Assembly (NCBI GenBank): GCA_964638055.1
Contig: CAZWXF010000001.1
Span: forward strand, 63,115-127,114
Source of the DNA: an uncultured Bifidobacteriaceae bacterium
Lineage (GTDB): Bacteria > Actinomycetota > Actinomycetes > S36-B12 > CAIYMF01
DNA: 64,000 bases
Direction of reading: 5' to 3'
In this document: piece by piece, positions 4,898 through 60,002 of the stretch
Position numbering within the stretch: position 1 is the first letter of the stretch
How the letters are laid out: each line of letters opens with the position of its first letter
Notes under the pieces: generated by a model
The model's input: only the letters and a program-made list of their open reading frames with translations
The model's database searches: none
What the model was told of the DNA's origin: nothing
Position numbers and translations under genes: made by a program

Positions 4898-5968
4898 ATG
4901 GGCGACGGGTCTGCGCTGGCGCAGGAGCAGATGCTTGCCCGCGTCGACCACGTGCTCGGCGAGTTCCTCCAGGAGCAGGCCAAGCTGCTGGCCTCGATCT
5001 CCACCGAGCTGGAGCCCTTCGCGACGTGGTTGTCCGGGCTGCTGTCCGGGGGGAAGCGGCTGCGCCCGTCGTTCTGCATCTGGGGCTACGTCGCGGCGGG
5101 CGGGCACGACCTGCCGGCGGCGATGGGAGCGGCGGCCTCCCTGGAGCTGCTGCAGGCCGGTGCCCTGATCCACGACGATGTCATGGACGCCTCCGACGTC
5201 CGACGCGGGATGCCCGCGGCGCACCGCTCGTTCGCCGAGCATCACCGGGCGGCCGGGTGGACGGGGACCTCACAGCGATTCGGCGACGGCGTCGCGATCC
5301 TGCTCGGCGACATGGCCCTGTGCTGGGCCGACGAGCTGTTCGCCCGCTCCGGCTTCGACCCGGCGACGCTGGCCTCGGCGCGATGGGTCTTCGACATCAT
5401 GCGGACCGAGGTCATGGCCGGCCAGGTCCTCGACCTCGTGGAGCAGGCCAGGGGCGGGGGCTCCGCGCGACGAGCCCTGCACGTCGTGCGGTTCAAGTCG
5501 GCCAAGTACACGATCGAGCGCCCGCTGCATCTGGGCGCTGCGCTGGCCGGGGCCGATCGCCGGCTGCTGGCCGCCCTCTCCGACTACGGGCTTCCGCTGG
5601 GCGAGGCGTTCCAGCTGCGCGACGACATCCTGGGCGTCTTCGGCGACCCGGACACCACGGGCAAGCCGGCCGGCGACGACCTGCGTGAGGGCAAGCGCAC
5701 GCTGCTGCTGGCCGAGGCTGCCCAGCGTGCGGACCCGGAGCAGGCATCAGTCCTGGCTGCCGGCATCGGCGTGCGGGATCTCTCCGACGAACGGGTCGAG
5801 GAGCTTCGCTCCGTCATCATCGCCACGGGGGCCCGGGAGGAGGTCGAGTCGGTGATCACCGCTCGCACGCAGCAGGCGCTCACGGCGTTGGGCGCCATCG
5901 ACGTGCCCGACGACGCTCGGGATGCTCTGGCCGGCCTGGCACTGGCCGCTACGGAGCGTCGGCACTGA
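4898..5968 (+). CDS. idsA: Polyprenyl (geranylgeranyl) diphosphate synthase
   Basis: Both aspartate-rich motifs are present: LIHDDVMDASDVRRG and FQLRDDILGVFGD. I chose the ATG at 4898 (MGDGSALAQEQ). The longer track ORF from 4769 overlaps the divergent gene. Confidence 0.85.
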   Translation: MGDGSALAQEQMLARVDHVLGEFLQEQAKLLASISTELEPFATWLSGLLSGGKRLRPSFCIWGYVAAGGHDLPAAMGAAASLELLQAGALIHDDVMDASDVRRGMPAAHRSFAEHHRAAGWTGTSQRFGDGVAILLGDMALCWADELFARSGFDPATLASARWVFDIMRTEVMAGQVLDLVEQARGGGSARRALHVVRFKSAKYTIERPLHLGAALAGADRRLLAALSDYGLPLGEAFQLRDDILGVFGDPDTTGKPAGDDLREGKRTLLLAEAAQRADPEQASVLAAGIGVRDLSDERVEELRSVIIATGAREEVESVITARTQQALTALGAIDVPDDARDALAGLALAATERRH

Positions 5969-6840
5969 TGGGCCGGGACCTGCTCCGCGCGCTGGCCTCG
6001 GGTGAACCGCTGTTCAGCTTCGAGTTCTTCCCGCCCAGGACCGATGCCGGGGAGGTGCAGCTCTGGCAGGCGATCTCGGAGCTGGCACCGCTGCGGCCGA
6101 CGTTCGTCTCCGTCACCTACGGGGCCGGCGGGTCGACCCGTGACCGGACGGTGCGGATCACCAGCCGGATACAGGCCGAGACCGGGATGACTGCCGTCGC
6201 CCACCTGACCTGTGTGGGGGCCAGCGTCGAGGAGCTCCAGGCGGTGCTGGCTCGCTACCGGGAGGAGGAGATCGGCAACCTGCTGGTGATCCGCGGCGAT
6301 CCTCCGGGAGGGCCCGGGCAGCCGTGGACCTCCGTGCCGGGTGGCCTGGTCCACGCCGACGAGCTGGTCGCACTGGCCCGCCGGGATGCGGACTTCACCG
6401 TCGGGGTGGCCGCCTTCCCCGAGGGGCATCCCGAGTCGGTCGACCTCGACCAGGACGCCCGGATCCTGGCAGCCAAGCAGGAGGCCGGGGCGAGCTTCGC
6501 CGTCACCCAGTTCTTCTTCCAGGCGAAGGACTACTTCACGCTGGTCGAGCGGGCCCAGCGCCACGGCGTGACGATCCCGATCATCCCCGGGCTGATGCCG
6601 GTGACCAACGTGGGCCAGATCCAGCGGTTCGCCGTGCTCTCGGGAGCGGCGTTCCCGGCCGACCTGGCCGAGCGGTTCCAGAAGGTGGCCGCCGACCCCG
6701 CGGCTGTCGTCGATCTGGGCATCGACGTGGCCACGGCGCTCGGGCAGGAGCTCCTGGACGGGGGAGCGCCGGGGCTGCACTTCTACACCCTGAACCGCTC
6801 CACTGCCACGCGCAGGATCTACGGGCGGCTGTCGGGCTAG
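5968..6840 (+). CDS. metF: 5,10-methylenetetrahydrofolate reductase
   Basis: FSFEFFPPRT, VSVTYGAGGSTRDRT, AHLTC, LVIRGDPP and the fragment HFYTLN are present. The start ATG overlaps the idsA stop (TGATG). Confidence 0.9.
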   Translation: MGRDLLRALASGEPLFSFEFFPPRTDAGEVQLWQAISELAPLRPTFVSVTYGAGGSTRDRTVRITSRIQAETGMTAVAHLTCVGASVEELQAVLARYREEEIGNLLVIRGDPPGGPGQPWTSVPGGLVHADELVALARRDADFTVGVAAFPEGHPESVDLDQDARILAAKQEAGASFAVTQFFFQAKDYFTLVERAQRHGVTIPIIPGLMPVTNVGQIQRFAVLSGAAFPADLAERFQKVAADPAAVVDLGIDVATALGQELLDGGAPGLHFYTLNRSTATRRIYGRLSG

Positions 6841-8765: not shown

Positions 8766-10331
8766 TCAGGCCCTGCCGATGACCTGCGCGACGATCTCGG
8801 CGGAGAGCCCGACCATCGCCAGGCCCGGGCCCGGGTGGGTCGCGGCACCGACGAGGAAGAGGCCCGGGATCGCTGTGACGTTGCTTGGCCGGCGGCGCAG
8901 TGCATCGGCGGTCAGGGGCTCACCGAGCAGCGCCCCGCCGGGCATGCCGGTGGCCCGCTCCTGGTCTGCGGGGGTGTGGATCTCCCGGTGGCGGATCCGG
9001 CCTGAGAGGTCGGTGCCGCGATCGGCGAGGAGGCGCAGGACGCGGTCGGCCTGCTTCGTCGCGACGCCCGGGGCGTCCCAGTCCATCGTCGCGGGCTGGC
9101 GTCCGCCCGGGCTGTGCGGCGAGACGTCGACGTGGACCGTCCAGGCCTGCAGCCCCGCGGGATGCATCTGGGGGTCGGCGGGAACGTGGGCCCGGATGAC
9201 GGGGTCGGGATCGGGGGCGTCCGCGATCCTGGCGTGCCTCGACGACCGGCGCGCTGGGTCGACGGGAAGCCACACGTGCTCCCACGCTGGCCCCAGCGGT
9301 GGGGGTCCCCAGGTCGAGAGCATCAGGGTCAGCCGGCCGGGTGGCGCAGGCGGGCCGGTCCGGCGGAGGGCCGGGGCGGTGCGTCCCACCAGGCGGGCGG
9401 GGCGGGGTGCTGACCGGGGGGGCGGGTGCGGGGATGCCGTGCCCGGGGGCGCGGCATCGGGGGGGAGCAGTCCCCACACGGCGCTGGTCGAGGGAAGGTC
9501 GGCGACCACCACGTCAGCGGGCAGCCGGGAGGTCGTCGCGCCATCGGTGACCACGACACCGGTGACGCGGCCTGCCGCGAGCTCGATGCGCAGGGCCCGG
9601 GTGCCCAGGAGGACGCGGACCTCCCGCTGGCACACCCGGTCGTGCAGGGCCTGGGCGAGCCGGTGCATGCCGCCCCTGATGTGCCATGCGCCGAACGTCG
9701 CCGCCAGGTAGGGGCCCAGCACTGCGGCCGCCGTGGCGGACCGGGGATCCATCGGTAGGGGGAGTGACCGGTCGGCCATCACGGCACGGGCCCGGGGGTC
9801 GGTCAGGCTGCGCGTGAGGAGGTCCTGCAGGGTGGGTGGCCGGCGTCCGGGGTCGGTGGGGTTGAGCAGGGCGTCGAGCGCGGCAGCGGTCCGAGGAGCT
9901 GGGCCGGTCAGTCCACCGCGCACGAGTGCCCAGGTCGCGGCGGCGTGGGCCATCACCTCCTGCCATTCGGCGGCGCTGGCCGGCCCCAGGGCCTCGCCGA
10001 CGGCCGCTGCGGTCGCCCCCACTCCCGCTCCGGGCAGCTCCAGGTGCGTCCCGTCGGCGAAGTGGTAGTGAGCGGCCGGCTCCAGGGGCACGAGCTCCAC
10101 CTCGTCCTCCAGGGGGCCGCCGGTCTTGAGGAAGAGGTCGCGGTACACGGCGGGGAGGGTCAGGGCCGTTGGCCCCAGCTCGAAGGTGCACCCGTCCCGT
10201 TCGACGGCTCGGACCTGACCGCCCGGAGTCGTCGACGTCTCGACGAGAGTGACGTCGTGGCGCTTCACGGCCAGCCGTGCGGCGACGGCCATCCCACCCA
10301 GCCCGGCGCCGATGACGACGATCCTGGCCAT
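8766..10331 (-). CDS. Phytoene-desaturase-family (CrtI-like) FAD-dependent oxidoreductase
   Basis: The N-terminus has the dinucleotide-binding motif MARIVVIGAGLGGMAVAARL...LVETSTTPGG. The C-terminus has GLFLVGAATHPGPGL. There is an internal Pro/Arg-rich insertion. Confidence 0.75.
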   Translation of the reverse strand: MARIVVIGAGLGGMAVAARLAVKRHDVTLVETSTTPGGQVRAVERDGCTFELGPTALTLPAVYRDLFLKTGGPLEDEVELVPLEPAAHYHFADGTHLELPGAGVGATAAAVGEALGPASAAEWQEVMAHAAATWALVRGGLTGPAPRTAAALDALLNPTDPGRRPPTLQDLLTRSLTDPRARAVMADRSLPLPMDPRSATAAAVLGPYLAATFGAWHIRGGMHRLAQALHDRVCQREVRVLLGTRALRIELAAGRVTGVVVTDGATTSRLPADVVVADLPSTSAVWGLLPPDAAPPGTASPHPPPRSAPRPARLVGRTAPALRRTGPPAPPGRLTLMLSTWGPPPLGPAWEHVWLPVDPARRSSRHARIADAPDPDPVIRAHVPADPQMHPAGLQAWTVHVDVSPHSPGGRQPATMDWDAPGVATKQADRVLRLLADRGTDLSGRIRHREIHTPADQERATGMPGGALLGEPLTADALRRRPSNVTAIPGLFLVGAATHPGPGLAMVGLSAEIVAQVIGRA

Positions 10332-10385
10332 CTTCGGCGCCCTCCAGCGGTCGAGGGACGATCCACAGGGATCGGATCAGCGGGG

Positions 10386-10415
10386 TTGACGTCTGTCAGT
10401 GGCCCGGCGTAACCT
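10386..10415 (+). promoter_or_regulatory. DNA-damage promoter: TTGACG -35, a RecA-NDp (PafBC-type) element and a TAACCT -10
   Basis: TTGACG (10386-10391) is followed by an 18-nt spacer and TAACCT (10410-10415). Inside the spacer, cTGTCAGTG (10393-10401), 8 nt and TAACCT match the mycobacterial RecA-independent DNA-damage promoter consensus tTGTCRgtg-N8-TAnnnT. Confidence 0.65.
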
Positions 10416-10424
10416 ACGGATAGT

Positions 10425-10440
10425 TCGAACACCAGTTCGA
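10425..10440. promoter_or_regulatory. LexA SOS box
   Basis: TCGAAC-ACCA-GTTCGA matches the actinobacterial LexA consensus TCGAAC-N4-GTTCGA exactly. It lies about 10 nt downstream of the -10 hexamer, so it overlaps the expected TSS. Confidence 0.8.
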
Positions 10441-10597
10441 ACTCTGGTTCCGAGTCCCCGGCCCTTGGATCCAGGGCTGGGATCGGCCTGCGGTTGCGGG
10501 GGAAGCGCGACTGCGGGCCGATCCTGCCACACCGTCGTCTTCCCCGGCGATGCCGATCAGGACGCAGCCCGTCCGCGGACTCCGAGGAAGGACTCCC

Positions 10598-10903
10598 ATG
10601 AGCCGTACCTACGAAGAACCCATCGACGTCCGGCGCTCCGGCGCCATCCCACCGACGGACCGGCCGGTCCAGTTCCTCTGGCGTGGCCGGCTCTACGTGG
10701 TCAGGGACGTGATCTCGCACTGGATCGAGTCGGCCCCGTGGTGGGGCGGATCAAGGCGGGCCCTCGAGGGGGAGATACCAGCGCACGAACACGAGGTCTG
10801 GCGGGTGGAGGCCCAGGCCGGGCGCAGCGACAGCGCAGGCGTCTACGACCTGCGTCGGGACATGGCCGCGGACCGCTGGGTCCTGGCCCGGGCGATGGAC
10901 TGA
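10598..10903 (+). CDS. Small conserved protein, DUF6504-like
   Basis: I chose ATG 10598 because a GGAAGGA RBS precedes it; the track ORF starts at 10550. The sequence PVQFLWRGRLYVVRDVISHWIE..WW...EVWRVEA...GVYDL is what I recognise as the DUF6504 family that precedes SAV_6107-type HEPN genes. Confidence 0.7.
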   Translation: MSRTYEEPIDVRRSGAIPPTDRPVQFLWRGRLYVVRDVISHWIESAPWWGGSRRALEGEIPAHEHEVWRVEAQAGRSDSAGVYDLRRDMAADRWVLARAMD

Positions 10904-10910
10904 TGATGAG

Positions 10911-11333
10911 ATGAGCGTGACGTCGACCAACCCGCCCCTCTCGTACCAGACCCGCGATCTCCTCGGCTCGGCGGCTCGTGGCCTCCTGGAGGCCCACGCG
11001 AGCCCCGATCCGTCTCGGCGGTACGCCTTGGCGCACCTGTCCGCGTTGCGAGCAGCCGCCGCGGTGCTGGCGGCCCGAGCCCACCCGGGCAACCGGGCTC
11101 GTATCCGCAGCGTGTGGGCGGTGCTGCCGACGGTGGCCCCCCAGCTGCAGGAGTGGTCAGCCTTCTTCGCCGCCAACGCCGGCAAGCGGGCGGCCGCGGA
11201 TGCCGGCCTTCCTGTGGTGAGCCACCGCGAGGCCGACGACCTGATCCGCGACGCGGAGACGTTCCTGGCCGAGGTCGCATCCCTCATCGGACGCGACTTC
11301 CAGGTGACCCTCCCGGATCGGCGCGTGGGGTGA
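10911..11333 (+). CDS. SAV_6107-family HEPN-domain-like protein
   Basis: The protein looks helical, contains RYALAH (an Rx4H arrangement) and ends in a helix SHREADDLIRDAETFLAEV that is typical of HEPN domains. It starts 8 nt after the previous gene and ends 3 nt before the polymerase gene. Confidence 0.65.
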   Translation: MSVTSTNPPLSYQTRDLLGSAARGLLEAHASPDPSRRYALAHLSALRAAAAVLAARAHPGNRARIRSVWAVLPTVAPQLQEWSAFFAANAGKRAAADAGLPVVSHREADDLIRDAETFLAEVASLIGRDFQVTLPDRRVG

Positions 11334-11336
11334 CCC

Positions 11337-14300
11337 ATGGCTCGGTTCGTCCACCTGCATGTGGCCTCCGGGTACTCGATGCGCTACGGGACCGCCCGGC
11401 CGGAGGACCTTGTGGCGCAGGCTGCCGCGATGGGCCAGGAGGCGCTAGCCCTGACAGACCGGGACGGCGCCTACGGGGCCGTCGCCTTCGCCCTGGCGTG
11501 CCGTCAGGCCGGGATCGCACCGATCCTCGGCGCAGACCTGGCCACCGCCGCCCAGCTCTCGGCCGGCCGATCCACGGGACGCGCCGGAGGCGGACGCTCT
11601 GCGTCACCGCCGCGGACCCCGGTCCGGGGTGGGGCCTCGGTCGATCCGGGGCATCCCCGCCTGGTGCTGCTGGCCATCGGGGCGCCGGGGTGGGCTTCGC
11701 TCAGCAGGGTCATCTCGGCCGCACACCTCTCGGGCGAGCGCGGGCAGCCGGTCGTGTCCGGCGCGATGCTCGCCGAGCGCTCGCGGGGGCTGGCCGCCCT
11801 CATCGGCCCGGACTCCGACGTGGGCAGGGCGCTGGCCCGGCGCCGGCCGGACGAGGCCGCGCGGCTGCTCGCGGGGTGGCGTGAGGTGCTCGGGGCGGGC
11901 GTCCGGATCGAGGTGGTGTCCCACCGCAGCCAGGCTCGTGGGGATCGGCCCGCCTGGTCTGCCGCGTTCGCGGCCCGGATGGTGGACCTCGCCCGGCAGT
12001 GCGGCGTCCCGGCGGTGCTGACCAACGCGGTGCGTCACCTGACCCCGGAGCAGGCCCCCGTGGCGGACGTCCTGGACGCGATCCGGCGGCTGGTGCCGCT
12101 GGCCCCGCGGCACCTCGATCGGGCCAACGCCCAGGGCTATCTCAAGGATGCCGACTCGATGGCCGAGGTGGCCCGCGAGATCGCCGAGGCCGGGGGAGCG
12201 GGGGCGGGGTCGGCCAGCAGGCTGCTCGACGCGACGCTCGAGCTCGCCGACTCCTGTCGGATGGACCCGGCGCGGGACCTGGGCATCGGGTCGGTCCATG
12301 TCCCCGAGCTGGACGTGCTGTTCCCGCAGGGAGCCGCAGGACTCCCGCCGGGTCCCCTGCCGACGGCGACCGGAGCCCAGGCGCGGATGGCCGACCGCGT
12401 GCTGCGACACAGGTGCCAGGGCGCGCTCGATGCGCGCTTCGCAGCGCGCTGGGAGCACAGGGCGGCCACCGAGAGGCTCGAGGAGGAGCTGGCGACCATC
12501 GCCACGCTCGGGTACGGCGGGTACTTCCTTACCGTCGCGGAGGTGGTGGACATGATCCGTGGGATGGGGGTCCGGGTCGCCGCCCGCGGCTCCGGTGCAG
12601 GCAGCCTGGTGAACCACCTGCTCGGGATCTCGGTGGTCGACCCGCTGGAGCACGGGCTGATCATGGAGCGGTTCCTCTCCCCGCTGCGGCAGGCCCTGCC
12701 CGACGTGGACATCGACGTGGAGTCCGCCCGCCGCACCGAGATCTACACCCGGCTGCTCGCCCGGTTCGGTGGCCAGCGCTGCGTGGCGGTCTCGATGATG
12801 GACACCTACCGGGTCCGCCACGCGATCCGCGACGTGGGCGCTGCGCTCGGCCTGCCTCCCGGGGAGATCGACGCCTTCGCCAAGGCCTTCCCCCACATCC
12901 GGGCCCGGGACGCCCGGGCGGCGCTCGTGGAGCTGCCCGAGCTGCGCAGCTCCGGACTGGGCAAGCTCGCGGCGCAGGGTCGGTTGGAGGGATTCCTCAG
13001 CCTGGTCGAGGCCCTCGACGGGCTGCCCCGCCACGTCGCCCTGCACCCCTGCGGCGTGCTGCTCAGCGACGCCTCACTGCTGGACCGCACGCCCGTGGAG
13101 GCCAGCTGGATGGGCTTCCCGATGAGCCAGTTCGACAAGGACGCGGTCGAGGAGATGGGCTTCCTCAAGCTGGACGTCCTGGGCATCCGGATGCAGTCGG
13201 CAATGGCCCATGCCCTCGACGAGGTCGTCCGGCTCGGCGAGGAGCCGGTGTCCCTGGACGACCTTCCGCTGGACGATCCCGACACGTTCGCGATGATCCG
13301 CACGACCCATACCCTCGGCTGCTTCCAGATCGAGTCCCCCGGCCAGCGGGAGCTGATCGGGCGCTTCGCCCCGGAGACGTTCGCGGACCTGATCATCGAC
13401 ATCTCGCTGTTCCGGCCGGGGCCGGTCAAGTCCGACATGGTCAACCCCTTCCTGCGCGCCCGGCAGGGATGGTCCCCGGTGGACCTGCCCCATCCGGACC
13501 TGGGTCCCGTGCTCGACCAGACCCACGGCGTGGTGGTGTTCCACGAGCAGGTGATCGGGGTGATCGCCGTCATGAGCGGCTGCAGCCTGGCCGAGGGCGA
13601 CGAGCTGCGCCGCTCGATGGGATCGCCGGAGGGGCAGGCCCAGGTCCGGGCGTGGTTCTACCCACGGGTGCTGGCGCGGGGGTATCCCCTCGAGGTGGTC
13701 GACCGGGTCTGGGAGGTGCTGCGCTCCTTCGCGTCGTTCGGCTTCTGCAAGGCCCATGCCGCTGCGTTCGCGCTGCCCACGTACCAGTCGGCATGGCTCA
13801 AGGCTCACCATCCGGCCGCCTTCCTGGCCGGGGTGCTGACCCACGATCCCGGGATGTACCCGAAGCGCCTGATCCTCGATGATGCCCGCAACCTGGGCAT
13901 CACCATCCTCGGCGTGGACATCAACCGCTCGGGCCCGGTGTACCGGGTCGAGGAGTGGCCGACGCCGTCGGCTCGCCCGACGCTGCCGGGCCTGCCCGAT
14001 GGCAGCCACCACGGCATCCGGATGCCCCTGGCCGAGGTCAAGGGGATCTCCGCGGCCGAGGTGGCGCAGATCGTCGCAGGCCAGCCGTACAGCAGCCTCT
14101 CGGACTTCTGGCACCGGGCCGGAGTCACCGCCCCGGTCGTGGAGAACCTCGTCCTCATCGGCGGCTTCGACTCCGTCTACGGCATCGACCTCGCCAGCGG
14201 TGTCCGGGCGCGCGGCCAGACGACGCGACGGGACCTGCTGCTGGAGGTGGCCGACTGCGACCGGCTCTCCCGGGTCACCCGGGCGCGTCGGGCGGGCAGG

Positions 14301-15428
14301 GCCCGGGGGGCTCGGGCGGGCGGGGTGGGTTCGGTGGCCGGGCCGCAGGCGGGGAGCAGGAGCCCTCTCGGGGCGGACCTGGCAACAGCCTCCCGGGTCG
14401 GCGCGGCGTTCCGAGCCGGTGCTTCCTTCCGAGCCATGGCCCCCCCGACCGGCGGGATCGCCACGGCCGGCGCCGCCCTGGACGAGGAGGAGGTGCTCCG
14501 CAGCTGCGACGCGGTTCAGCCGGCTGGCCTGTCCGATCCCGCGCCACCCCCGCAGGCCTGGTGGGATCCGGCCCGCGCCGCTGCGGCGCAGTCCCAGGCC
14601 CCAGCCCCGGCGCTCGCCGGTCCGGTCCAGCTGGCCATGGACCTGCCCTCGCCGGGATCGGGGTGTGCCAGTGGGCTGCCCGAGATGACCACGGGGGAGA
14701 GCGTCCGCACGGAGCTGGGCATCCTGGGGATGGACGTGAGCCAGCACGTGCTGGACTTCTACGCCCCGATGCTCGCCGACATCGGGGTGGTGCCCGCCCG
14801 TGATCTCCTCGCCCAGCGCAGTCGGCAGGAGGTGTGGGTCGCCGGGGTGAAGGTGGCCACGCAGACCCCACCGATACGCAGCGGGCGCCGGGTGCTCTTC
14901 CTGACGGTCGACGACTCGACCGGTCCCGTGGACGCCACCTTCTTCGAGGACGCCCAGGATCCGTACGCCGCGACCGTCTTCGGTGGCTGGCTGCTGCTGG
15001 TCCGGGGCATCACCCGCCGCACCGGGCCCCGGGGGATATCCCTGCGGGCCACGGGCTGCTGGGATCTCGGCGTGGTCCACGGGATCTGGCAGGCCGGTGG
15101 TCGAGCCGGCGCCTGGGAGTACGTGAGCAGCTTCCCTCGGATCGAGGCTGACGGGCGGCCCACGAAGGTCGCCGACGTCCAGGTGGCGGGCGACCGGGAG
15201 ACGCCGCGGCAGCCGGGCCAGTCCGTGGTCGGCATCGGGCGCCATGCGTCAGGGGGCATGGGCCAGCGGCGACGGGTCCTGGTCCATGCCAGTGGGTTCA
15301 AGCAGTCGCCCTACGCGGACGTCAAGCCGGCAGGGGACGACCCGAGCGGCACCCCGCGGATACCCGAGCAGCCGACCCCCGCTCCCGGTCGGCTCTGGCA
15401 CGCCAGCCAGGGAAGCAGCGGCTGGTGA
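11337..15428 (+). CDS. dnaE2: Error-prone DNA polymerase III alpha-like subunit (DnaE2-like), with a large low-complexity insertion
   Basis: The N-terminus is a PHP domain (FVHLHVASGYSMRYG, LTDRDGAYG). The pol III alpha core is present (DVDIDVES, LKLDVLGIRMQS, GCFQIESPGQRE, FGFCKAHAAAFA). The C-terminus has an OB-fold region and ends in RLWHASQGSSGW. The window also contains a separate replicative dnaE. Confidence 0.85.
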   Translation: MARFVHLHVASGYSMRYGTARPEDLVAQAAAMGQEALALTDRDGAYGAVAFALACRQAGIAPILGADLATAAQLSAGRSTGRAGGGRSASPPRTPVRGGASVDPGHPRLVLLAIGAPGWASLSRVISAAHLSGERGQPVVSGAMLAERSRGLAALIGPDSDVGRALARRRPDEAARLLAGWREVLGAGVRIEVVSHRSQARGDRPAWSAAFAARMVDLARQCGVPAVLTNAVRHLTPEQAPVADVLDAIRRLVPLAPRHLDRANAQGYLKDADSMAEVAREIAEAGGAGAGSASRLLDATLELADSCRMDPARDLGIGSVHVPELDVLFPQGAAGLPPGPLPTATGAQARMADRVLRHRCQGALDARFAARWEHRAATERLEEELATIATLGYGGYFLTVAEVVDMIRGMGVRVAARGSGAGSLVNHLLGISVVDPLEHGLIMERFLSPLRQALPDVDIDVESARRTEIYTRLLARFGGQRCVAVSMMDTYRVRHAIRDVGAALGLPPGEIDAFAKAFPHIRARDARAALVELPELRSSGLGKLAAQGRLEGFLSLVEALDGLPRHVALHPCGVLLSDASLLDRTPVEASWMGFPMSQFDKDAVEEMGFLKLDVLGIRMQSAMAHALDEVVRLGEEPVSLDDLPLDDPDTFAMIRTTHTLGCFQIESPGQRELIGRFAPETFADLIIDISLFRPGPVKSDMVNPFLRARQGWSPVDLPHPDLGPVLDQTHGVVVFHEQVIGVIAVMSGCSLAEGDELRRSMGSPEGQAQVRAWFYPRVLARGYPLEVVDRVWEVLRSFASFGFCKAHAAAFALPTYQSAWLKAHHPAAFLAGVLTHDPGMYPKRLILDDARNLGITILGVDINRSGPVYRVEEWPTPSARPTLPGLPDGSHHGIRMPLAEVKGISAAEVAQIVAGQPYSSLSDFWHRAGVTAPVVENLVLIGGFDSVYGIDLASGVRARGQTTRRDLLLEVADCDRLSRVTRARRAGRARGARAGGVGSVAGPQAGSRSPLGADLATASRVGAAFRAGASFRAMAPPTGGIATAGAALDEEEVLRSCDAVQPAGLSDPAPPPQAWWDPARAAAAQSQAPAPALAGPVQLAMDLPSPGSGCASGLPEMTTGESVRTELGILGMDVSQHVLDFYAPMLADIGVVPARDLLAQRSRQEVWVAGVKVATQTPPIRSGRRVLFLTVDDSTGPVDATFFEDAQDPYAATVFGGWLLLVRGITRRTGPRGISLRATGCWDLGVVHGIWQAGGRAGAWEYVSSFPRIEADGRPTKVADVQVAGDRETPRQPGQSVVGIGRHASGGMGQRRRVLVHASGFKQSPYADVKPAGDDPSGTPRIPEQPTPAPGRLWHASQGSSGW

Positions 15429-15485
15429 TGGCGCGAGAGTGGCCAGCGCACCGGGTGACGGGCACAGGGCGCAGGGGACTGCAGG

Positions 15486-16769
15486 ATGGGGGGCACAGGA
15501 GGGTGGATGAGTCGAAGTCAGATCAACCGGCCGGCGGCTCCGGCGGGATTGGGCGACGACGATCGGGGCTGTCGCATCCTCCACGTGGACATGGACGCGT
15601 TCTACGCCTCGGTGGAGGTGGCGCGGCGCCCGGAGCTGCGTGGACGGCCGATGATCGTCGGGGGGATGGGCAGCCGGGGCGTCGTGCTGGCCGCCACCTA
15701 CGAGGCCCGTCGCCACGGCATCCACTCGGCGATGCCCATGAGTCGTGCCCTGCGCCTCGGACCGCCCGACCTGGTCGTCGTGCAGCCCGACCACGCGCGC
15801 TACGCCCAGGTGTCGGCTGCTGTCATGGAGGTGTTCACCTCGATCACGCCGTTCGTGGAGCCACTGAGCCTCGACGAGGCCTTCCTGGACGTGTCCGGCT
15901 GCCGGCTGACCCACGGCTCGCCGGGCGCGATAGCGGCGAGCATCCGCGATCAGGTCCACGACGAACAGGGCATCACCTGCTCGGTCGGGGTGGCGCCGAC
16001 GAAGTTCGTGGCCAAGCTGGCATCGACCCAGTGCAAGCCGGACGGCCTGCTGGTCGTGCCGGCCGACCAGGTGATCGCCTTCCTGCATCCCATGCCCGTG
16101 GGTGCCCTCTGGGGGGTGGGGGAGCGCACAGAGGAGCAGCTGCACCGCCTCGGCCTGCGCACGGTGGCCGACATCGCCCACACCCCGACCCAGACCCTCG
16201 TCCGCGCTCTGGGCCAGGCAGCGGGTCGCCATCTGGCGGATCTGGCCTGGGGTCGAGACGATCGCGACGTCACGCTGCATCAGCGGGAGCGCAGCGTGGG
16301 GGCCGAGGAGACCTTCGCGCGAGACGTCGACGATCCCGAGATCGTCCTGGCAGAGCTCCTGCGCCTCAGCGAGAAGGTGGGTGGCCGGATGCGACGGGCG
16401 GGGCTGTCGGGCAGCACGGTCACCATCAAGGTCCGGTTCGCCGACTTCAGCACGGTCACCCGATCCCGCCGCCTGCGTGCCTCGACCGCGGTGAGTCGGG
16501 AGATCTTCCATGGAGCTCGGGACCTCTACCTGGCCATGCACCTGGACCGGGCGCGGATACGACTGGTCGGCGTCCGGATGGAGGGGATCGCGCTGGAGGA
16601 GACCGTCGAGACGCAACTCATCCTGGGGGCGCCCGAGCGGGGCTGGCGGGAGGCCGAGCAGGCGGTGGACCGGGTGATCGCGAAGTTCGGCCGGGACACC
16701 GTCCGACATGCCCGCCTGATCCCCGAGAAGGGCCACGCGAGCGGCCATCCTGGGGGCACCCGACCATGA
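15486..16769 (+). CDS. dinB: DNA polymerase IV (Y-family), with catalytic residues present
   Basis: ILHVDMDAFYASVE, LSLDEAFLDVS and CSVGVAPTKFVAKLAS are present. The start may instead be the ATG at 15507 (MSRSQ). Confidence 0.9.
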   Translation: MGGTGGWMSRSQINRPAAPAGLGDDDRGCRILHVDMDAFYASVEVARRPELRGRPMIVGGMGSRGVVLAATYEARRHGIHSAMPMSRALRLGPPDLVVVQPDHARYAQVSAAVMEVFTSITPFVEPLSLDEAFLDVSGCRLTHGSPGAIAASIRDQVHDEQGITCSVGVAPTKFVAKLASTQCKPDGLLVVPADQVIAFLHPMPVGALWGVGERTEEQLHRLGLRTVADIAHTPTQTLVRALGQAAGRHLADLAWGRDDRDVTLHQRERSVGAEETFARDVDDPEIVLAELLRLSEKVGGRMRRAGLSGSTVTIKVRFADFSTVTRSRRLRASTAVSREIFHGARDLYLAMHLDRARIRLVGVRMEGIALEETVETQLILGAPERGWREAEQAVDRVIAKFGRDTVRHARLIPEKGHASGHPGGTRP

Positions 16770-16970
16770 CCGGCCGCAGACCGACCCCGGGCGGGGCCGC
16801 AACCCGAGCGCCCGCATGGCAAGATCAGCGCCGGTGTCCTCGCCTGCAGGGGCGTTCCCTCCCCCGGGCGGGCCCCACAGAGCGTGCCCCGAGTTCCCTT
16901 ATCGGGCAACCCTGCCTATCCTGAGCCTTAGAGGCACCGCGCACGACCGTGAGCCATGTAGGAGGTCACC

Positions 16971-17384
16971 GTGCCACTCTCTGAGCACGAGCAGCGCCTG
17001 CTTGAGCAGATGGAGCGTGCCCTCTACGCAGAGGACCCGAAGTTCGCCACGAGCATGCGCAATCCCCGGGCCGGTGCCGGGGATCGTCGACTTGTCGCCA
17101 TCGGGATCGTCGCGTTCCTCGGAGGCATGGGTCTGCTGGTTGCCGGGGTCGCGACGCGACTGGTTCCCGTGGGAGTCCTCGGCTTCCTGCTGATGCTCGG
17201 CGGCATCTGGCTTGCAGTGGCATCGTTCCGCCCCGGCGGGGCCGCGCCAGCGGCCGGTGCGGCGCCCCAGGGCCACCCGACACCCATCCGCGGGCACTCG
17301 AAGCCGCGACGTTCGTCCCGCGGCTCGATCTCCGAGCGCATGGAGGAGCGATGGCGGCATCGCCGGGAGCGCGGCGACCTCTGA
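16971..17384 (+). CDS. DUF3040-family membrane protein (Rv2169c-like)
   Basis: It begins with GTG preceded by an AGGAGG RBS. The N-terminus reads PLSEHEQRLLEQMERALYAEDPKF, followed by two TM helices. Confidence 0.8.
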   Translation: MPLSEHEQRLLEQMERALYAEDPKFATSMRNPRAGAGDRRLVAIGIVAFLGGMGLLVAGVATRLVPVGVLGFLLMLGGIWLAVASFRPGGAAPAAGAAPQGHPTPIRGHSKPRRSSRGSISERMEERWRHRRERGDL

Positions 17385-17387
17385 CCC

Positions 17388-17703
17388 AGTAGAGACCAGA
17401 GGCGCCGGCCGAGAGGCGCCGGTCGAGCCCAAACGCCGGTCGAGCCCGTCGAGACCAGCGCCCATCGAGCCCAGCGTCGAGCCCAGCGCCGGTCGAACCC
17501 AAACGCCGGTCGAGCCTGTCGAGACCAGCGCCCGTCGAGCCCAGCGCCGCTCGAGCCCAGCGTCGAGCCCAGCGCCGGTCGAGCCCAAACGCCGGTCGAG
17601 CCTGTCGAGACCAGCGCCCGTCGAGCCCAGCGCCGCCAGAGCCCGTCGAGCCCAGCGCCGGTCGAGCCCGTCGAGACCAGCGCCGGTCGAGCCCGTCGGG
17701 TCG
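17388..17703. repeat. Degenerate tandem array of the GTCGAGCCC/GTCGAGACC repeat family (locus A)
   Basis: GTCGAGCC[C/T], GTCGAGACC and AGCGCC(G) modules recur many times, with an 86-bp higher-order period between 17501 and 17587. An inverted copy GTCTCGACGGGCTCGACC lies at 17796-17813. Confidence 0.85.
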
Positions 17704-17815
17704 GATCATCGGGGGAAAGCCATGGCACCGGCGGGCATGGCTCGTGGCTGCCTGTCCCGTGCCTGTCCCGCGGCCAAGAGGTCGTGCGACAGTGCGTCTC
17801 GACGGGCTCGACCCG

Positions 17816-17846
17816 CGTCTTGGGTCTCACTCGGAGACCCAAGACG
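17816..17846. terminator. Bidirectional hairpin between convergent genes
   Basis: The stem is a perfect 13-bp pairing, CGTCTTGGGTCTC / GAGACCCAAGACG, with loop ACTCG. It lies 7 nt from the stop of the minus-strand hydrolase gene. GTCTTGGGTCTC recurs at 60167-60178. Confidence 0.6.
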
Positions 17847-17853
17847 AGATGTG

Positions 17854-18651
17854 CTACTCCGAAGCCGGCACCAGCGACTCCACGAACTCCGCGGACTCGG
17901 CGAAGATCCGCTCGGCGTCGTAGTCGAGCGTGGCCACGTGGTAGGAGCGCTGAAGCTCCACCTCGCGCAGGGGGGAGCGGACATGGGCGCGGATCAGCTC
18001 TGAGTTGTTGGGCCCCACGACATGGTCGGTAAGGGAGCGCACGAGGAGCACGGGCGCGATGACCTTCTCCATCGTCGTGCGGAACGACTTCCAGCCGTCC
18101 AGGAGCGAGACCGCAAGCTCGACGGGGACCTTGTCGTAGGCGAGCTCATGCCCCGTCGGATCGGCGATGTCGCTGCCCACTCCGGGGACGCCCTTGACGA
18201 AGCGCGCCAGGTGCCTCTGCAGCGGGACGAGGTGGCGCTGCCAGCCGGCCACCCCGTCCGGGCGGACCCAGGGGTTCACCAGCACCAGGCCGGCCACGTC
18301 CTGCGGCCGAGCCGCCGCGACGTGCAGAGCCAGGGTGGAGCCGTAGGACATTGCCATGAGGAAGACCCGATCAGTGCGCGACCGCATGGCCTCGAAGGCG
18401 CGGTCCACCGCGGCCTGCAGGTCCGCGTAGGTCTTGGTGTTCGCGTCCTGCCAGGTCGTGCCGTGGCCCGGCAGCAGGATCGCGTCCACGGTGTAGCCGC
18501 GCTCGTTCAGGTACTGGGCCCAGGGCCGCATGCTGTCCGGGGACCCGGAGAAGCCGTGGACGAAGACGATGCCCGTCCGGGCGTTCTCACCGGAACCCTC
18601 CGCAGCGAACGGCTCGCATCCAGGCCTGATCCTGTCGTTGGCCACGTCCAT
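17854..18651 (-). CDS. Alpha/beta hydrolase (carboxylesterase / lysophospholipase-like)
   Basis: This is the C-terminal 265 aa of track ORF 17854..19743, starting at MDVANDR. It contains IVFVHGFSGSP and a nucleophile elbow AMSYGS. The upstream part of the ORF is R/A/G-rich and overlaps the MaoC gene on the other strand. Confidence 0.8.
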   Translation of the reverse strand: MDVANDRIRPGCEPFAAEGSGENARTGIVFVHGFSGSPDSMRPWAQYLNERGYTVDAILLPGHGTTWQDANTKTYADLQAAVDRAFEAMRSRTDRVFLMAMSYGSTLALHVAAARPQDVAGLVLVNPWVRPDGVAGWQRHLVPLQRHLARFVKGVPGVGSDIADPTGHELAYDKVPVELAVSLLDGWKSFRTTMEKVIAPVLLVRSLTDHVVGPNNSELIRAHVRSPLREVELQRSYHVATLDYDAERIFAESAEFVESLVPASE

Positions 18652-18855
18652 GAATCGATCCCTTCCCAGAAGGTCGGCGGTGGTCGCGATCGCTGCGCAG
18701 CCCCGCGCGCAGCCCGAAGGGGCGGCCCTGCGAGCGGCGCGAGCCGCGAACGCCGCGCCAGAGTAACGCGTTCGGGACGACCCCGGGCACGCCCCCCTCC
18801 GGAGGAGGGTAGGAGGTGCTGGCCACAATGAGGCCGACCCCAGGGAGGAAATGCG

Positions 18856-19398
18856 ATGACCGTCCATCCAGCCGTGCTCGGCCGCTTCTTCGAGGACTTC
18901 GAGGTCGGCGACGTCTACCAGCACCCGTTCGGCCGGACCATCACCGATGCCGACAACGCATGGTTCACGCTGCTGACCTGCAACACCAACCAGATGCACT
19001 TCAACGCCCACCTGTCCCAGCAGAACCCGATCACCAAGGGACGGATCATCGTCGTCTCCGGCTTCACCGTCGGGCTCGTCCTCGGTCTGACGGTTCTGGA
19101 CATGAGCCAGAACGCCGTTGCGAACCTGGGCTGGAACAACATCAAGCTCACGCACCCGGTGTACGTCGGGGACACCATCTATGCCGAGAGCGTCTGCACG
19201 GCCAAGCGCCCGTCCAGCTCGCGCCCCGAGATGGGGATCATCTCCATGGACACCAGGGCCCTGAACCAGGACGGGGATGTGGTCATGACCTACGACCGCT
19301 CCGTCATGATCCCGACCCGCACCAGCGGCATCGGGCAGAACTACTTCCCGCAGGCGAAGGCCGGCCCGCTCGCAGCCCCTGCACCCCCGGCGGGCTGA
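18856..19398 (+). CDS. MaoC-family (hotdog-fold) dehydratase
   Basis: A GGGAGGA RBS precedes the start. FEDFEVGDVYQHPFGRTITDADNAWFTLLTCNTNQMHFN is typical of MaoC/mesaconyl-CoA-hydratase-like proteins. Confidence 0.8.
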   Translation: MTVHPAVLGRFFEDFEVGDVYQHPFGRTITDADNAWFTLLTCNTNQMHFNAHLSQQNPITKGRIIVVSGFTVGLVLGLTVLDMSQNAVANLGWNNIKLTHPVYVGDTIYAESVCTAKRPSSSRPEMGIISMDTRALNQDGDVVMTYDRSVMIPTRTSGIGQNYFPQAKAGPLAAPAPPAG

Positions 19399-19416
19399 CG
19401 CCCCCCGGAGGGCGTC
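19397..19416 (+). terminator. Hairpin directly after the MaoC gene stop
   Basis: GACGCCC-cccgga-GGGCGTC forms a 7-bp stem. There is no U tract, which is common in high-GC actinobacteria. Confidence 0.35.
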
Positions 19417-19471
19417 GGCCCGCCAGGCCCCCCGGGCGCGCGACGAAGGACGAGCACAGCCCGCCGATCCC

Positions 19472-19507
19472 CGACACCCCGGTGACCCCCGTGGTCCCGG
19501 GGTGTCG
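19472..19507 (+). terminator. Second intergenic hairpin upstream of the dcw promoter region
   Basis: CGACACCCCGG - 14 nt - CCGGGGTGTCG forms a perfect 11-bp stem. Confidence 0.3.
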
Positions 19508-19638
19508 CGCGTGCGGCGGCCACTGGGCGCGGCAAGCACCCTGGGGGACCAGCCCCGGCGGGCGCTGCGCCGAGGAACGCTGCCGCGCGCCACGACCGTG
19601 GATGGTCGGGGGGCAGATCCCTCACCGAGGGCGCCAAT

Positions 19639-19678
19639 GTGGAGGGTTGTGGAGTATCGTGGTTGTTCGTGGCGGAGG
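19639..19678 (+). promoter_or_regulatory. MraZ operator: four GTGG direct repeats at 10-bp spacing
   Basis: The sequence GTGGAGGGTT GTGGAGTATC GTGGTTGTTC GTGGCGGAGG has GTGG at 19639, 19649, 19659 and 19669. It ends 86 nt upstream of the mraZ ATG. MraZ is known to bind 10-bp-phased (G)TGGG-type direct repeats in its own promoter. Confidence 0.7.
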
Positions 19679-19763
19679 CGGGCGGGCGATTCGAGCCCGA
19701 CCGCTTGCGCCGCACCAAGGCGGACCACGCCGCCGAGGGCCACTCCGAGGCAGGTGAGCGGCG

Positions 19764-20201
19764 ATGTTCCTGGGGACGCACTTCCCCAAGCTGGATGAGA
19801 AGGGCCGTGTCATCCTGCCCGCGCGCTTCCGTGACGAGCTGGGCGAGGGACTCGTGCTGACCAAGGGTCAGGACCGATGCCTGGTCCTGTGGCCGCGTGG
19901 AGAGTTCGACTCCCATGCGGCGATGCTGCGATCGCAGGCACAGGCCAGCGCCCGCGTGCGCGCGATGACCCGGGTGTTCTTCTCGTCGGCCTTCGACGAG
20001 CTGCTCGACCGCCAGGGCAGGCTCACGATCCCGCCGGTGCTGCGGGAGTACGCGGGCCTGGAACGCGAGCTGACGGTCGTGGGCGCGGACACCCGCATCG
20101 AGATCTGGGACTCCGCGGCCTGGTCGCAGTATCTGGCGGACAACGAGGCCGCCTTCGCCGACCTCGACATGGATGCGGAAGGAGGGCCGCCCCTGGCCTG
20201 A
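19764..20201 (+). CDS. mraZ: Transcriptional regulator MraZ
   Basis: MFLGTHFPKLDEKGRVILPARFRDEL and a second SpoVT/AbrB-like half (DRQGRLTIPPVLREYAGL) are present. Confidence 0.95.
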   Translation: MFLGTHFPKLDEKGRVILPARFRDELGEGLVLTKGQDRCLVLWPRGEFDSHAAMLRSQAQASARVRAMTRVFFSSAFDELLDRQGRLTIPPVLREYAGLERELTVVGADTRIEIWDSAAWSQYLADNEAAFADLDMDAEGGPPLA

Positions 20202-20407
20202 GCCGCCTCTGACTGCGCGACATGTGATTCCCCTCCGCGCGGTTCGACGCCACTTCCCCGGTGCCGAACCCTCCGACGCCACTTCCCCGGTGCCGGAATC
20301 CGCGGCGGGGGGCCAGGTGGCACGCAGGGCCCGCACTCACCTGGAACGGGCCGACCCCGCCATCCGCCCACACCATCCGGCCCGCAGACCGACTGGGAGG
20401 ACCGTGG

Positions 20408-21370
20408 ATGACTGACTCCCACGTGCCGGTCATGCTCGAGGAGTGCCTGGCGATCCTCGGCCCGGCACTCGGGCGCCCCGGCGCCGCAGCCCTCGACGCC
20501 ACCCTGGGCCTGGGCGGCCACGCGGAGGCGATGCTGGAGGCACATCCGGGACTGCGCCTGCTCGGGCTTGACCGGGATCCCGCCGCACTGGCCTCGGCGA
20601 GCGCCCGGTTGGGCCGCTTCGGCGGGCGCGTCCGGACCTGGCGCGGCACCTACGACCAGATTCGTGAGGCGATGGCCGCCGTCGGGTGGACGAACCTCGA
20701 CGCGGTGCTCTTCGACCTGGGCGTGTCGTCCATGCAGCTGGATCGCGACGAGCGCGGCTTCGCCTACTCCCGGGATGCACCCCTGGACATGCGGATGGAT
20801 CCGACGAGCGGGCCGACCGCGGCGGACATCCTCAACACGTACTCGCAGACCGAGCTCGCCAGGGTCCTGCGCGACCTGGGGGAGGAGCGATTCGCCGTAC
20901 CCATCGCTCGTGCGGTGATCCGGGAGCGCCAGCGCGATCCCTTCACCAGCAGTGCCCGGTTGTCCGAGCTGATCCGGGAGGTCATCCCAGCACCCGCCCG
21001 CCGGACCGGCGGCAATCCGGCCAAGCGGACCTTCCAGGCCCTGCGGATGGAGGTCAACCGAGAGCTGGATCACCTCCGCCGTGCGATGCCCGGGGCGATC
21101 TCGGCCCTCGGTCCGGGCGGGCGGATGGTGGTCCTGAGCTATCACTCGGGCGAGGACCGCATCGTCAAGCAGGCGATCCGCCGGGCGACGGAGCCCGACG
21201 TGCCCCCGGGTCTGCCGGTGATCCCGGAGGAATTGCAGCCCATTGCGCGTGTTCTCACCCGCGGAGCGGCCAGGGCATCGGAGGATGAGGTCCAGCGCAA
21301 CCCTCGCGCGGCATCGGTCCGGCTTCGGGCGGTGGAGAAGGTCGACGCACGTGCTCGGGAGGTCCGATGA
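20408..21370 (+). CDS. rsmH: 16S rRNA (cytosine1402-N4)-methyltransferase
   Basis: HVPVMLEE, DATLGLGGHAE, FDLGVSSMQLD, SYHSGEDR and the fragment RLR are present. I trimmed the start to ATG 20408 (MTDSHVPV). Confidence 0.95.
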   Translation: MTDSHVPVMLEECLAILGPALGRPGAAALDATLGLGGHAEAMLEAHPGLRLLGLDRDPAALASASARLGRFGGRVRTWRGTYDQIREAMAAVGWTNLDAVLFDLGVSSMQLDRDERGFAYSRDAPLDMRMDPTSGPTAADILNTYSQTELARVLRDLGEERFAVPIARAVIRERQRDPFTSSARLSELIREVIPAPARRTGGNPAKRTFQALRMEVNRELDHLRRAMPGAISALGPGGRMVVLSYHSGEDRIVKQAIRRATEPDVPPGLPVIPEELQPIARVLTRGAARASEDEVQRNPRAASVRLRAVEKVDARAREVR

Positions 21371-23906: not shown

Positions 23907-23909
23907 CCC

Positions 23910-25426
<1,517 letters not shown>

Positions 25427-25430
<4 letters not shown>

Positions 25431-30601: not shown

Positions 30602-30605
30602 CCCC

Positions 30606-33873: not shown

Positions 33874-34315
33874 CCCTCCAGCAGCGTGCGGTAGGCACGC
33901 GATCGCGCGCTGCGGCGCCGCTGAGCTGACCGTGGGCGCGATGCATGGCGGTGCCTGGACCGGGGGATCCCGACGTCGGAGCGACGGAGGTCCGAGCCGG
34001 CGATCCACGGGTGGGCCGGCTCCGCCAGGCCACGCGGCCCGGGCCCGCGTGGCCATCGACAACTACCAAATGCCCCGTGTCGTCATGCATCCGGGGTCCC
34101 GCGACACGCCCGACACGCCGACGTGGCCGGGAATGCTTGAAACGCCCCCGGGAGGGCCCTAGGTTCCGGGTCAGCCATAGGTTGACATAACTCTAAGCCT
34201 CAGGTTGAGGGTGAGAGTCGGGTCATCCAAGGGTGCAAAGGGCCTGGCCGGGGCACCGGCAGGCAGGCGAAGCGGAATACGAGAAGTGACCACATACCAA
34301 GTGAGGAGAGCCCAC

Positions 34316-55286: not shown

Positions 55287-57458
<2,172 letters not shown>

Positions 57459-59996: not shown

Positions 59997-60002
59997 GCGC
60001 GC

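Follow-up and report, generated by a model that had tools for sequence, protein, structure and literature searches.

The 64,000-nucleotide (nt) stretch of DNA analyzed here, referred to below as the window (contig CAZWXF010000001.1 of an uncultured Bifidobacteriaceae bacterium), carries on its plus strand, between positions 10386 and 16769, a cassette of four genes that probably forms a LexA-repressed operon for a translesion or mutagenic polymerase assembly of the ImuA-less "split-ImuB" kind, the DnaE2B-PolY-ImuB-C(-RecA) type. DnaE2-type mutasomes are responsible for damage-induced mutation, including that leading to drug resistance in mycobacteria, and mutasome compositions beyond ImuA'-ImuB-DnaE2 are known by genome comparison alone; the locus described here is a clean and typical example of the split form. 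We place the core of the cassette in this class because of its sequence identities to the published exemplar, a DnaE2B polymerase with a degenerate PHP domain and no clamp motif, and an intact PolY. The predominant version of the split-ImuB form also contains a conserved fourth gene, encoding a HEPN-fold protein, which published models, built on a HEPN-less exemplar, omit.

All four open reading frames (ORFs) have Pfam or NCBIfam matches for their products, and they are arranged as follows (lengths in amino acids [aa]):

10598-10903, plus strand: gene 1, standalone ImuB-C domain protein (Pfam DUF6504), 101 aa
10911-11333, plus strand: gene 2, HEPN_SAV_6107 family, 140 aa; HEPN fold without the catalytic His
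11337-15428, plus strand: gene 3, DnaE2B-type accessory C-family DNA polymerase, 1363 aa
15486-16769, plus strand: gene 4, PolY/DinB Y-family polymerase, 427 aa, with clamp-type and RecA-NT-like motifs at the C terminus

An initial annotation, made from the sequence alone, had described four codirectional genes separated by gaps of 7, 3, and 57 nt, and these values are exact (10904-10910, 11334-11336, and 15429-15485, respectively). Dozens of other genomes and metagenome contigs, independent of one another, have the same gene order, so the arrangement is far from a chance one, and the order PF20114-PF18726-DnaE-IMS was also seen with independent gene calls in other assemblies. The G+C content of the window is approximately 72%, and the nearest matches are actinobacterial. 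The start that had been given for the first gene, position 10386, needed revision: it is out of frame (10386 to 10903 spans 518 nt), the longest ORF in the gene 1 frame opens at 10550, and the start is the ATG at 10598, which is preceded by GGAAGGA; homologues all begin MSRTY or MTRRY, and the 101-aa product was also obtained from independent gene calls in three other assemblies. Position 10386 was therefore rejected as a gene start and is instead the first nucleotide of a -35-like TTGACG; a 171-aa ORF at 10399 to 10914 was discarded as an off-frame, Arg/Pro-rich artifact.

Domain searches of the two small proteins, a check that the initial annotation had proposed, identified gene 1 as PF20114 (DUF6504; E value of 7e-19) and gene 2 as PF18726 (HEPN_SAV_6107; E value of 1e-32). 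By BLASTP, the gene 1 product is 45% identical (E value of 6e-21) to VEP41449, the published ImuB-C protein of Tessaracoccus lapidicaptus, which itself matches PF20114 (E value of 1.2e-13). Given this identity, the PF20114 match of the exemplar, and the pairing of DUF6504 with dnaE on Arthrobacter plasmids, DUF6504 is, as judged from sequence, the "ImuB-C" protein of the literature, a predicted detached C-terminal domain of ImuB, so that ImuB would be present here in divided form and not missing. Both small proteins had been left without a role; this now holds for the HEPN protein and no longer for DUF6504. An AlphaFold2 model of gene 1 is all-beta with six strands (predicted local distance difference test score [pLDDT], 83); Foldseek found no fold match for it in the PDB, in agreement with the statement of a "novel fold" in the 2026 survey cited below, and a PDB sequence search with the DUF6504 profile also returned nothing. 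Residues 428 to 498 of Agrobacterium ImuB align with PF20114 at the expected place, with a subthreshold score (E value of 0.0027; 18.4 bits; cutoff, 24.2). The link between DUF6504/ImuB-C and the C terminus of full-length ImuB is drawn from Aravind 2013 and Timinskas 2019.

Gene 3 has a complete set of domains (PHP, pol3-alpha, finger, HhH, and OB in Pfam) and scores 619 bits against the DnaE1 model NF004226 and 615 bits against the error-prone model NF004225 (cutoff, 939), in both cases under the cutoff, and these near-equal scores fit a separate DnaE2B group. Over the N-terminal ~430 aa it shares 48% identity with DnaE2B of T. lapidicaptus and 46% with Streptomyces DnaE2B (BLASTP), and the sequence assigns it to the accessory C-family polymerases of the DnaE2B group, not to DnaE1 or DnaE2A. 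The replicative polymerase gene, situated 30 kb away in the same window, served as an internal control:

45425-49177, minus strand: replicative dnaE1, 1250-aa ORF, 1488 bits against NF004226; PHP ligands and QFDLF intact

In an alignment with this DnaE1, the gene 3 product has substitutions at five or more of the nine PHP metal ligands and lacks the QFDLF clamp motif; the catalytic PDVDID is intact. The protein also contains a low-complexity insertion of ~150 aa, rich in Ala, Gly, and Arg, ahead of the OB domain (residues ~975 to 1130) and a C-terminal tail (~1290 to 1363) that is absent from DnaE1 and canonical DnaE2, and its 1363 aa compare with 1277 aa in T. lapidicaptus.

The product of gene 4 exceeds the cutoff of NF003015 (399.7 bits versus 367), contains the IMS, IMS_HHH, and IMS_C domains, and is 53% identical to T. 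lapidicaptus PolY (BLASTP). The motifs DMDAFYASVE and SLDEAFLDVS, noted at the outset as signs of an active DinB, are both present, and the residues D35, D37, D130, and E131 are invariant in all 45 HEPN-linked orthologues. At the C terminus a clamp-type QLILG (Q-L-x-L in orthologues) is followed by GWREAEQAVDRVIAKFGRDTVRHARL; the tail pattern GWREAExAVDxxxxxFGxxxVxxAxL shows at least 80% conservation among the 45 orthologues and aligns, as a sequence pattern only, with the RecA-NT-like motif of T. lapidicaptus PolY and with the N terminus of RecA. PolY is thus, by its motifs, a catalytically intact Y-family enzyme with predicted handles for the clamp and for RecA.

The composition DnaE2B plus active PolY plus ImuB-C, which the initial annotation had implied to be novel, is already known from comparative genomic studies published in 2013, 2019, and 2026 (Timinskas & Venclovas NAR 2019, NAR 2026). 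The 2026 survey distinguishes DnaE2B groups with active PolY, ImuB-C, and RecA, exemplified by T. lapidicaptus (sequences VEP41449-41451, taken by us from its supplementary file), from those with ImuB-C only (Arthrobacter), and its AlphaFold3 model places ImuB-C in contact with the PHP domain of DnaE2B. The T. lapidicaptus system, from what is probably the same phylum, resembles that of the window in gene order, strand, an MTHFR gene upstream, and a DUF3040 gene downstream, and its LexA box lies ~155 nt 5' of imuB-C, as does the SOS box here; it differs in that the window and most relatives have a HEPN gene between imuB-C and dnaE2B, whereas the exemplar has none within 8 kb. With the mycobacterial ImuA'-ImuB-DnaE2 mutasome (Warner 2010; Gessner 2023) the cassette shares LexA control, a dead PHP domain, a polymerase without a clamp motif, clamp and RecA-NT motifs on the Y-family partner, and the ImuB-C beta-barrel module. 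However, the Y-family protein of the window is catalytically intact, ImuB-C is a separate chain, no ImuA' is present in the window, and 615 bits against NF004225 contrasts with the 1497 bits of a true DnaE2A. None of three features of the canonical ImuA(ImuA')-ImuB-DnaE2 system was found: an ImuA gene, a dead Y-family protein with fused ImuB-C, or a polymerase of the DnaE2A type. The absence of imuA- and imuB-like genes from the window had been noted previously, and tblastn, with queries that included ImuA' of a Micromonosporaceae locus (L038) and Agrobacterium ImuA, likewise found neither imuA' nor imuB in the 64 kb; no recA was found within the window either. A third relative, the Streptomyces dnaE2-dinB2 operon (Tsai 2011), also consists of a DnaE2B-type polymerase followed by a Y-family gene and is UV inducible, but its scDinB2 is classed as inactive and is 33% identical to the window PolY, and no ImuB-C has been reported for it.

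Three features upstream of gene 1 bear on the control of the cassette:

10386-10415, plus strand: promoter-like site, TTGACG at 10386-10391, an 18-nt spacer, and TAACCT at 10410-10415; read by eye
10425-10440, unstranded: LexA (SOS) box TCGAACACCAGTTCGA, a perfect match to the actinobacterial palindrome TCGAAC-N4-GTTCGA
10479-10545, plus strand: structured 5' leader, a 20-bp hairpin at 10479-10525 (loop GGGGAAG) and then GUCUUCCCC

The LexA box is the sole perfect one in the window, is overlapped by a degenerate second copy at 10437 to 10452, and lies ~9 nt 3' of the -10-like hexamer, both here and in all aligned relatives. Since TTGACG, the 17- to 18-nt spacer, and a TANNNT hexamer keep their positions in an alignment with seven related loci, the segment 10386 to 10415 is likely to be the operon promoter, with 10386 opening its -35 element. 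A scan for consensus promoters and terminators from 10200 to 17400 flagged nothing; the site was missed because its -10 hexamer fits TATAAT at only three of six positions, and the proposal is accordingly founded on conservation across species. A single SOS-controlled, damage-inducible transcript is the best reading of the four genes, because no second LexA box, terminator-like site, or consensus promoter was found inside the cassette, and the suggestion of a single damage-induced unit made in the initial annotation gains from the LexA box, which is perfect here and is conserved in related loci. In a survey of 80 HEPN loci, totaling 1.02 Mb, with at most one mismatch allowed, 66 of the 80 loci had a LexA box within 1 kb 5' of the HEPN gene. 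The boxes recovered also numbered 80, of which 71 were within 1 kb 5' of HEPN, 8 were just 5' of a neighboring dinB, and 1 was elsewhere; in other words, 79 were associated with the cassette, 5' of HEPN/DUF6504 or of the adjacent dinB.

The leader RNA between the LexA box and gene 1 (10441 to 10597) has a minimum free energy of -84.9 kcal/mol (z score, -3.18) and no Rfam match. Its hairpin is kept in four close relatives, with only one compensatory pair, and GUCUUCCCC is conserved and complementary to the ribosome-binding site GGAAGGA (10586 to 10592; AGGAGGA in relatives). We speculate that the leader may serve as a translational switch that sequesters the Shine-Dalgarno sequence.

The second gene of the cassette encodes, to judge from its sequence and predicted structure, a HEPN-fold bundle that lacks the catalytic His and is predicted to be noncatalytic. 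The AlphaFold2 model is a helical bundle (pLDDT, 85.9) whose best PDB folds are all HEPN proteins (2hsb, template-modeling scores of 0.69/0.75; 1wol; and sacsin, 3o10), although a PDB sequence search returned nothing. The last helix opens with R106-E-A-D-D-L-I-R113 (R106-x6-R113) rather than Rx4-6H, and the position of the catalytic His is occupied by Arg in 80 of 81 sequences. R37, H42, R47, W69, E81, W82, R93, D109, and D110 are further invariant residues, the same in the 81 sequences from every genomic context; the invariant R37-x4-H42 lies on helix 2, a noncanonical position. The HEPN survey of Anantharaman 2013 lists the family as actinobacterial, with "No" for the catalytic motif and no context given. 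The family comprises ~1170 clusters at 50% identity (1168), all of short proteins.

To define the company that this protein keeps, we retrieved 80 species-representative genome loci with the HEPN protein, and the best 80 metagenome loci with DUF6504, 61 of which were informative. The genome loci were distributed as follows:

DUF6504-HEPN-DnaE2B-PolY, complete: 32 loci
HEPN-DnaE2B forms without detected DUF6504 or PolY, mostly ended by a contig end: 14 loci
HEPN-PolY only, mostly Propionibacteriaceae-like: 15 loci (one at a contig end)
DUF6504-HEPN-PolY: 2 loci
HEPN-imuA'-imuB-dnaE2, Micromonosporaceae: 5 loci
HEPN alone (Streptomyces, 6; Jiangella, 2; Actinomycetospora, 2): 10 loci
Uninformative, contig end beside HEPN: 2 loci

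HEPN was thus followed by DnaE2B in 46 of the 80 loci (32 full and 14 partial or at contig ends), and it stood ahead of a Y-family-containing polymerase cassette in 66. From the DUF6504 side, 59 of the 61 informative metagenome loci had DUF6504 directly followed by HEPN and then DnaE; a neighborhood census of this kind had been proposed with the initial annotation, and the DUF6504-HEPN pairs are indeed tied to dnaE2/dinB elsewhere. The four-gene form also occurs in the culturable genera Modestobacter, Pseudokineococcus, and Embleya, and Micromonosporaceae with HEPN ahead of imuA'-imuB-dnaE2 are culturable as well. All variants of the cassette occupy one syntenic block, bounded on one side by metF and the FAD oxidoreductase gene and on the other by the SCO2097-family (DUF3040) gene, after which come mraZ and the dcw cluster. 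In two slightly more distant relatives of T. lapidicaptus the four-gene form is present, while the exemplar and one close relative lack HEPN, and for this reason the form with HEPN seems to be the ancestral and predominant one, and the published exemplar a derived one. Our literature search found no link between HEPN, PF18726, or SAV_6107 and dnaE2, the 2013 HEPN survey being the sole relevant result, and HEPN is not mentioned in published descriptions of split-ImuB systems or their supplements; HEPN_SAV_6107 as a conserved, SOS-linked member of polymerase cassettes therefore appears to be new.

The five Micromonosporaceae loci (L038, L040, L041, L080, and L084, from Dactylosporangium, Actinoplanes, and other members of the family) have imuA'-imuB-dnaE2 at the syntenic site of the cassette, with HEPN directly 5' of imuA' and a LexA box 5' of HEPN; matches to NF058630 (169 bits) and NF004225 (1497 bits, Dactylosporangium) confirmed the identities of ImuA' and DnaE2, respectively. 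This synteny suggests either that one mutasome type has replaced the other in situ or that both share an origin. It also disposes of the idea, suggested by the upstream slot that HEPN occupies, of a stand-in for ImuA, since HEPN co-occurs with a bona fide ImuA'. In eight Propionibacteriaceae-like HEPN-PolY loci (L033, L039, L045, L047, L063, L067, L077, and L078) HEPN and dinB have separate LexA boxes, with a one-mismatch box 5' of HEPN and a second box immediately 5' of dinB that is perfect in seven of the eight; L047 has the dinB box only and none before HEPN. As each gene has its own box, HEPN and dinB appear to be separately SOS controlled where DUF6504 and DnaE2B are missing. On Arthrobacter sp. 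YA7-1 plasmid pYA7-1a (L002, the one plasmid inspected), a DUF6504-DnaE2B pair adjoins a gene for an SOS-response-associated peptidase; ~30 other Arthrobacter/Pseudarthrobacter plasmids carry a DUF6504 gene, and about two-thirds of the Arthrobacter-group plasmids were typed as conjugative. From this carriage, the minimal module of ImuB-C and DnaE2B can be regarded as plasmid borne and mobile.

These distributions indicate that HEPN goes with the Y-family member of the cassette. It is absent, as is PolY, from the DUF6504-DnaE pairs of Arthrobacter plasmids and Nonomuraea; HEPN-PolY pairs persist where DUF6504 and DnaE2B have been lost; and HEPN precedes ImuA'-ImuB, in which ImuB is a Y-family protein. 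Rate covariation lends this weak support. In a mirror-tree analysis of the 32 complete cassettes by partial Mantel tests controlling for the DnaE core, which are anticonservative on related sequences, the positive control, DUF6504 against the PHP domain of DnaE2B, gave an r of 0.40 (P = 0.002), consistent with the ImuB-C/PHP contact in the published AlphaFold model, and HEPN covaried with the PolY core (r = 0.31; P = 0.008) and with the OB/C-terminal part of DnaE2B (r = 0.26; P = 0.0003), but not significantly with DUF6504 (r = 0.03) or the PHP domain (r = -0.11). HEPN would then most likely assist or regulate the Y-family polymerase as its partner. We further propose, tentatively and with somewhat more doubt than conviction, that HEPN_SAV_6107 is an unrecognized LexA-controlled subunit or regulator of actinobacterial Y-family-containing polymerases in three settings, the split assembly, solo PolY, and the Micromonosporaceae ImuA'-ImuB-DnaE2 system, and that it may be a catalytically inert bundle repurposed as a polymerase "manager," in a role like that of UmuD' or YolD. 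UmuD' of Pol V and YolD/YqjX of Bacillus subtilis YqjW are likewise products of small LexA-controlled genes directly 5' of a RecA-NT-bearing Y-family polymerase; they differ from HEPN in having beta-rich or SH3-like folds rather than an all-alpha bundle, and HEPN has no autocleavage motif.

We suggest that the assembly would operate as follows. Upon DNA damage, RecA*-stimulated cleavage of LexA would derepress the operon. DnaE2B, which by its sequence has an intact polymerase site, a dead PHP domain, and no clamp motif, would have no access to the fork without help. PolY would bring the beta-clamp motif (QLILG) and a RecA-docking tail, the part played by ImuA' in mycobacteria, and the ImuB-C beta-barrel would bridge to the PHP domain of DnaE2B, a contact echoed by the covariation of DUF6504 and PHP. 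The HEPN bundle, presumably translationally coupled to DnaE2B, may act as an accessory or regulatory subunit with the Y-family partner, comparable to UmuD' or YolD/YqjX in role and not in ancestry. By analogy, we infer that the output of the system would be mutagenic.

A number of observations weigh against this account. The DnaE2B-PolY-ImuB-C-RecA class is known from comparative genomics and AlphaFold models alone, and in the sole genetic study of a DnaE2B, UV survival and UV mutagenesis were both unchanged by deletion of Streptomyces dnaE2 (Tsai 2011). The C terminus of actinobacterial ImuB gives no Pfam match, and hhalign of DUF6504 against five ImuB tails, a small and too uniform set, gave an E value of 0.076. 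No fusion of HEPN with DUF6504, DnaE, or DinB was found in 160 loci, nor any HEPN fusion among the best 150 of the 1168 family clusters. T. lapidicaptus has DUF6504-DnaE2B-PolY without HEPN within 8 kb, as does its close relative, so HEPN is dispensable for at least some cassettes, and HEPN persists alone in Streptomyces, where the six loci have no adjoining DnaE2B, PolY, or LexA box, and in Jiangella and Actinomycetospora, which means that it has some function without adjacent polymerase genes. Because all variants share one syntenic block, the truly independent associations are fewer than the locus counts suggest, and the co-occurrence may largely be one inherited arrangement. The mirror-tree statistics, being anticonservative, count on the same side.

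Several of these points would suit a different view of gene 2, that HEPN is an independent SOS-induced gene, concerned, for example, with RNA, nucleotide, or RecA binding, which shares only a neighborhood and promoter with the known DnaE2B-PolY-ImuB-C system; we regard this as unlikely, though it is the strongest of the alternatives. The lone HEPN proteins (10 of 80 loci) keep all of the invariant residues, those of Jiangella and Actinomycetospora still have a perfect LexA box 640 to 660 nt 5', each gene of the HEPN-PolY loci has its own box, and Tessaracoccus cassettes do without HEPN, all within the one syntenic block; the conserved R37, R47, R93, R106, and R113 would also suit an anionic ligand. 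Against such independence, HEPN is embedded in the operon between ImuB-C and DnaE2B with gaps of 7 and 3 nt, the DUF6504-HEPN-DnaE arrangement was seen in 59 of the 61 loci found from the DUF6504 side, HEPN keeps its place directly 5' of a Y-family gene across three cassettes of different composition, and its evolutionary rate covaries with those of the PolY and DnaE2B cores to a degree that exceeds the proxy used for shared phylogeny.

A still less probable alternative is that the operon is SOS induced but nonmutagenic and serves mostly accurate gap filling, lesion bypass, or backup replication. The Streptomyces analogy can be read in this way: DinB1 and DinB2 had other roles, with DinB homologues suggested to patch telomeres, and the dnaE2 deletion had no UV-sensitivity or mutagenesis phenotype (Tsai 2011); the window PolY, moreover, belongs to the PolY-core type and looks like an ordinary, active DinB. 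The degenerate PHP proofreading site of DnaE2B speaks against accurate synthesis, however, the organism has a separate intact DnaE1, and the architecture, with a clamp motif on the Y-family partner only, a RecA-NT tail, and ImuB-C, parallels that of the mutagenic ImuA'-ImuB-DnaE2 system. We consider it highly improbable that DUF6504 and HEPN are a toxin-antitoxin-like pair in an SOS operon, like yafN-yafO in the Escherichia coli dinB operon: they are two small neighbors 7 nt apart, HEPN is a common toxin fold (7bxo, 8yuf, and 8xeh are among the low-rank fold matches of gene 2), and PADLOC gave a weak match to PDC-M05B (E value of 0.014), but the His of the Rx4-6H motif is replaced, in keeping with the "No" of Anantharaman 2013, DUF6504 is already accounted for as the ImuB-C domain, and at least 30 loci have HEPN but no DUF6504 and, conversely, plasmids and Tessaracoccus have DUF6504 but no HEPN, a separation that such a pair would not tolerate. 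The HEPN-MNT toxin-antitoxin RNases (Anantharaman 2013) share with gene 2 the four-helix HEPN fold and the Arg that opens the last helix; they differ in that the HEPN of the window has Arg for the catalytic His, is chromosomal, syntenic, and SOS linked, and has no MNT nucleotidyltransferase beside it, its neighbors being DUF6504 and DnaE2B here and translesion synthesis or unrelated genes elsewhere. A reading of HEPN as part of a defense system was rejected, the PADLOC match being the only one and weak.

The syntenic block in the window includes, upstream of the cassette, metF (5968 to 6840), a membrane transporter gene, and an FAD amine-oxidase-like oxidoreductase gene (8766 to 10331, minus strand), and, downstream (16971 to 35500), the SCO2097-family/DUF3040 gene (16971 to 17384), mraZ (19764 to 20201), and the dcw cluster. 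Rfam and tRNA scans of the window gave no matches. Tandem arrays of the 9-mer GTCGAGCCC occur at 17416 to 17694, just 3' of the SCO2097-family gene that comes after the cassette, and at 54500 to 54644, 56103 to 56240, and 60002 to 60120; with 30 exact copies observed against 2.8 expected, they look like an intergenic repeat family.

The split-ImuB cassette thus probably represents a LexA-controlled polymerase assembly whose core composition was already known and whose predominant form includes a HEPN gene. If HEPN_SAV_6107 is a subunit or regulator of these polymerases, as we tentatively propose, the published four-protein models would not be complete for most of the Actinobacteria in which the system occurs, and the family would clearly exemplify the recruitment of a HEPN domain to a nonnuclease role in DNA damage tolerance.

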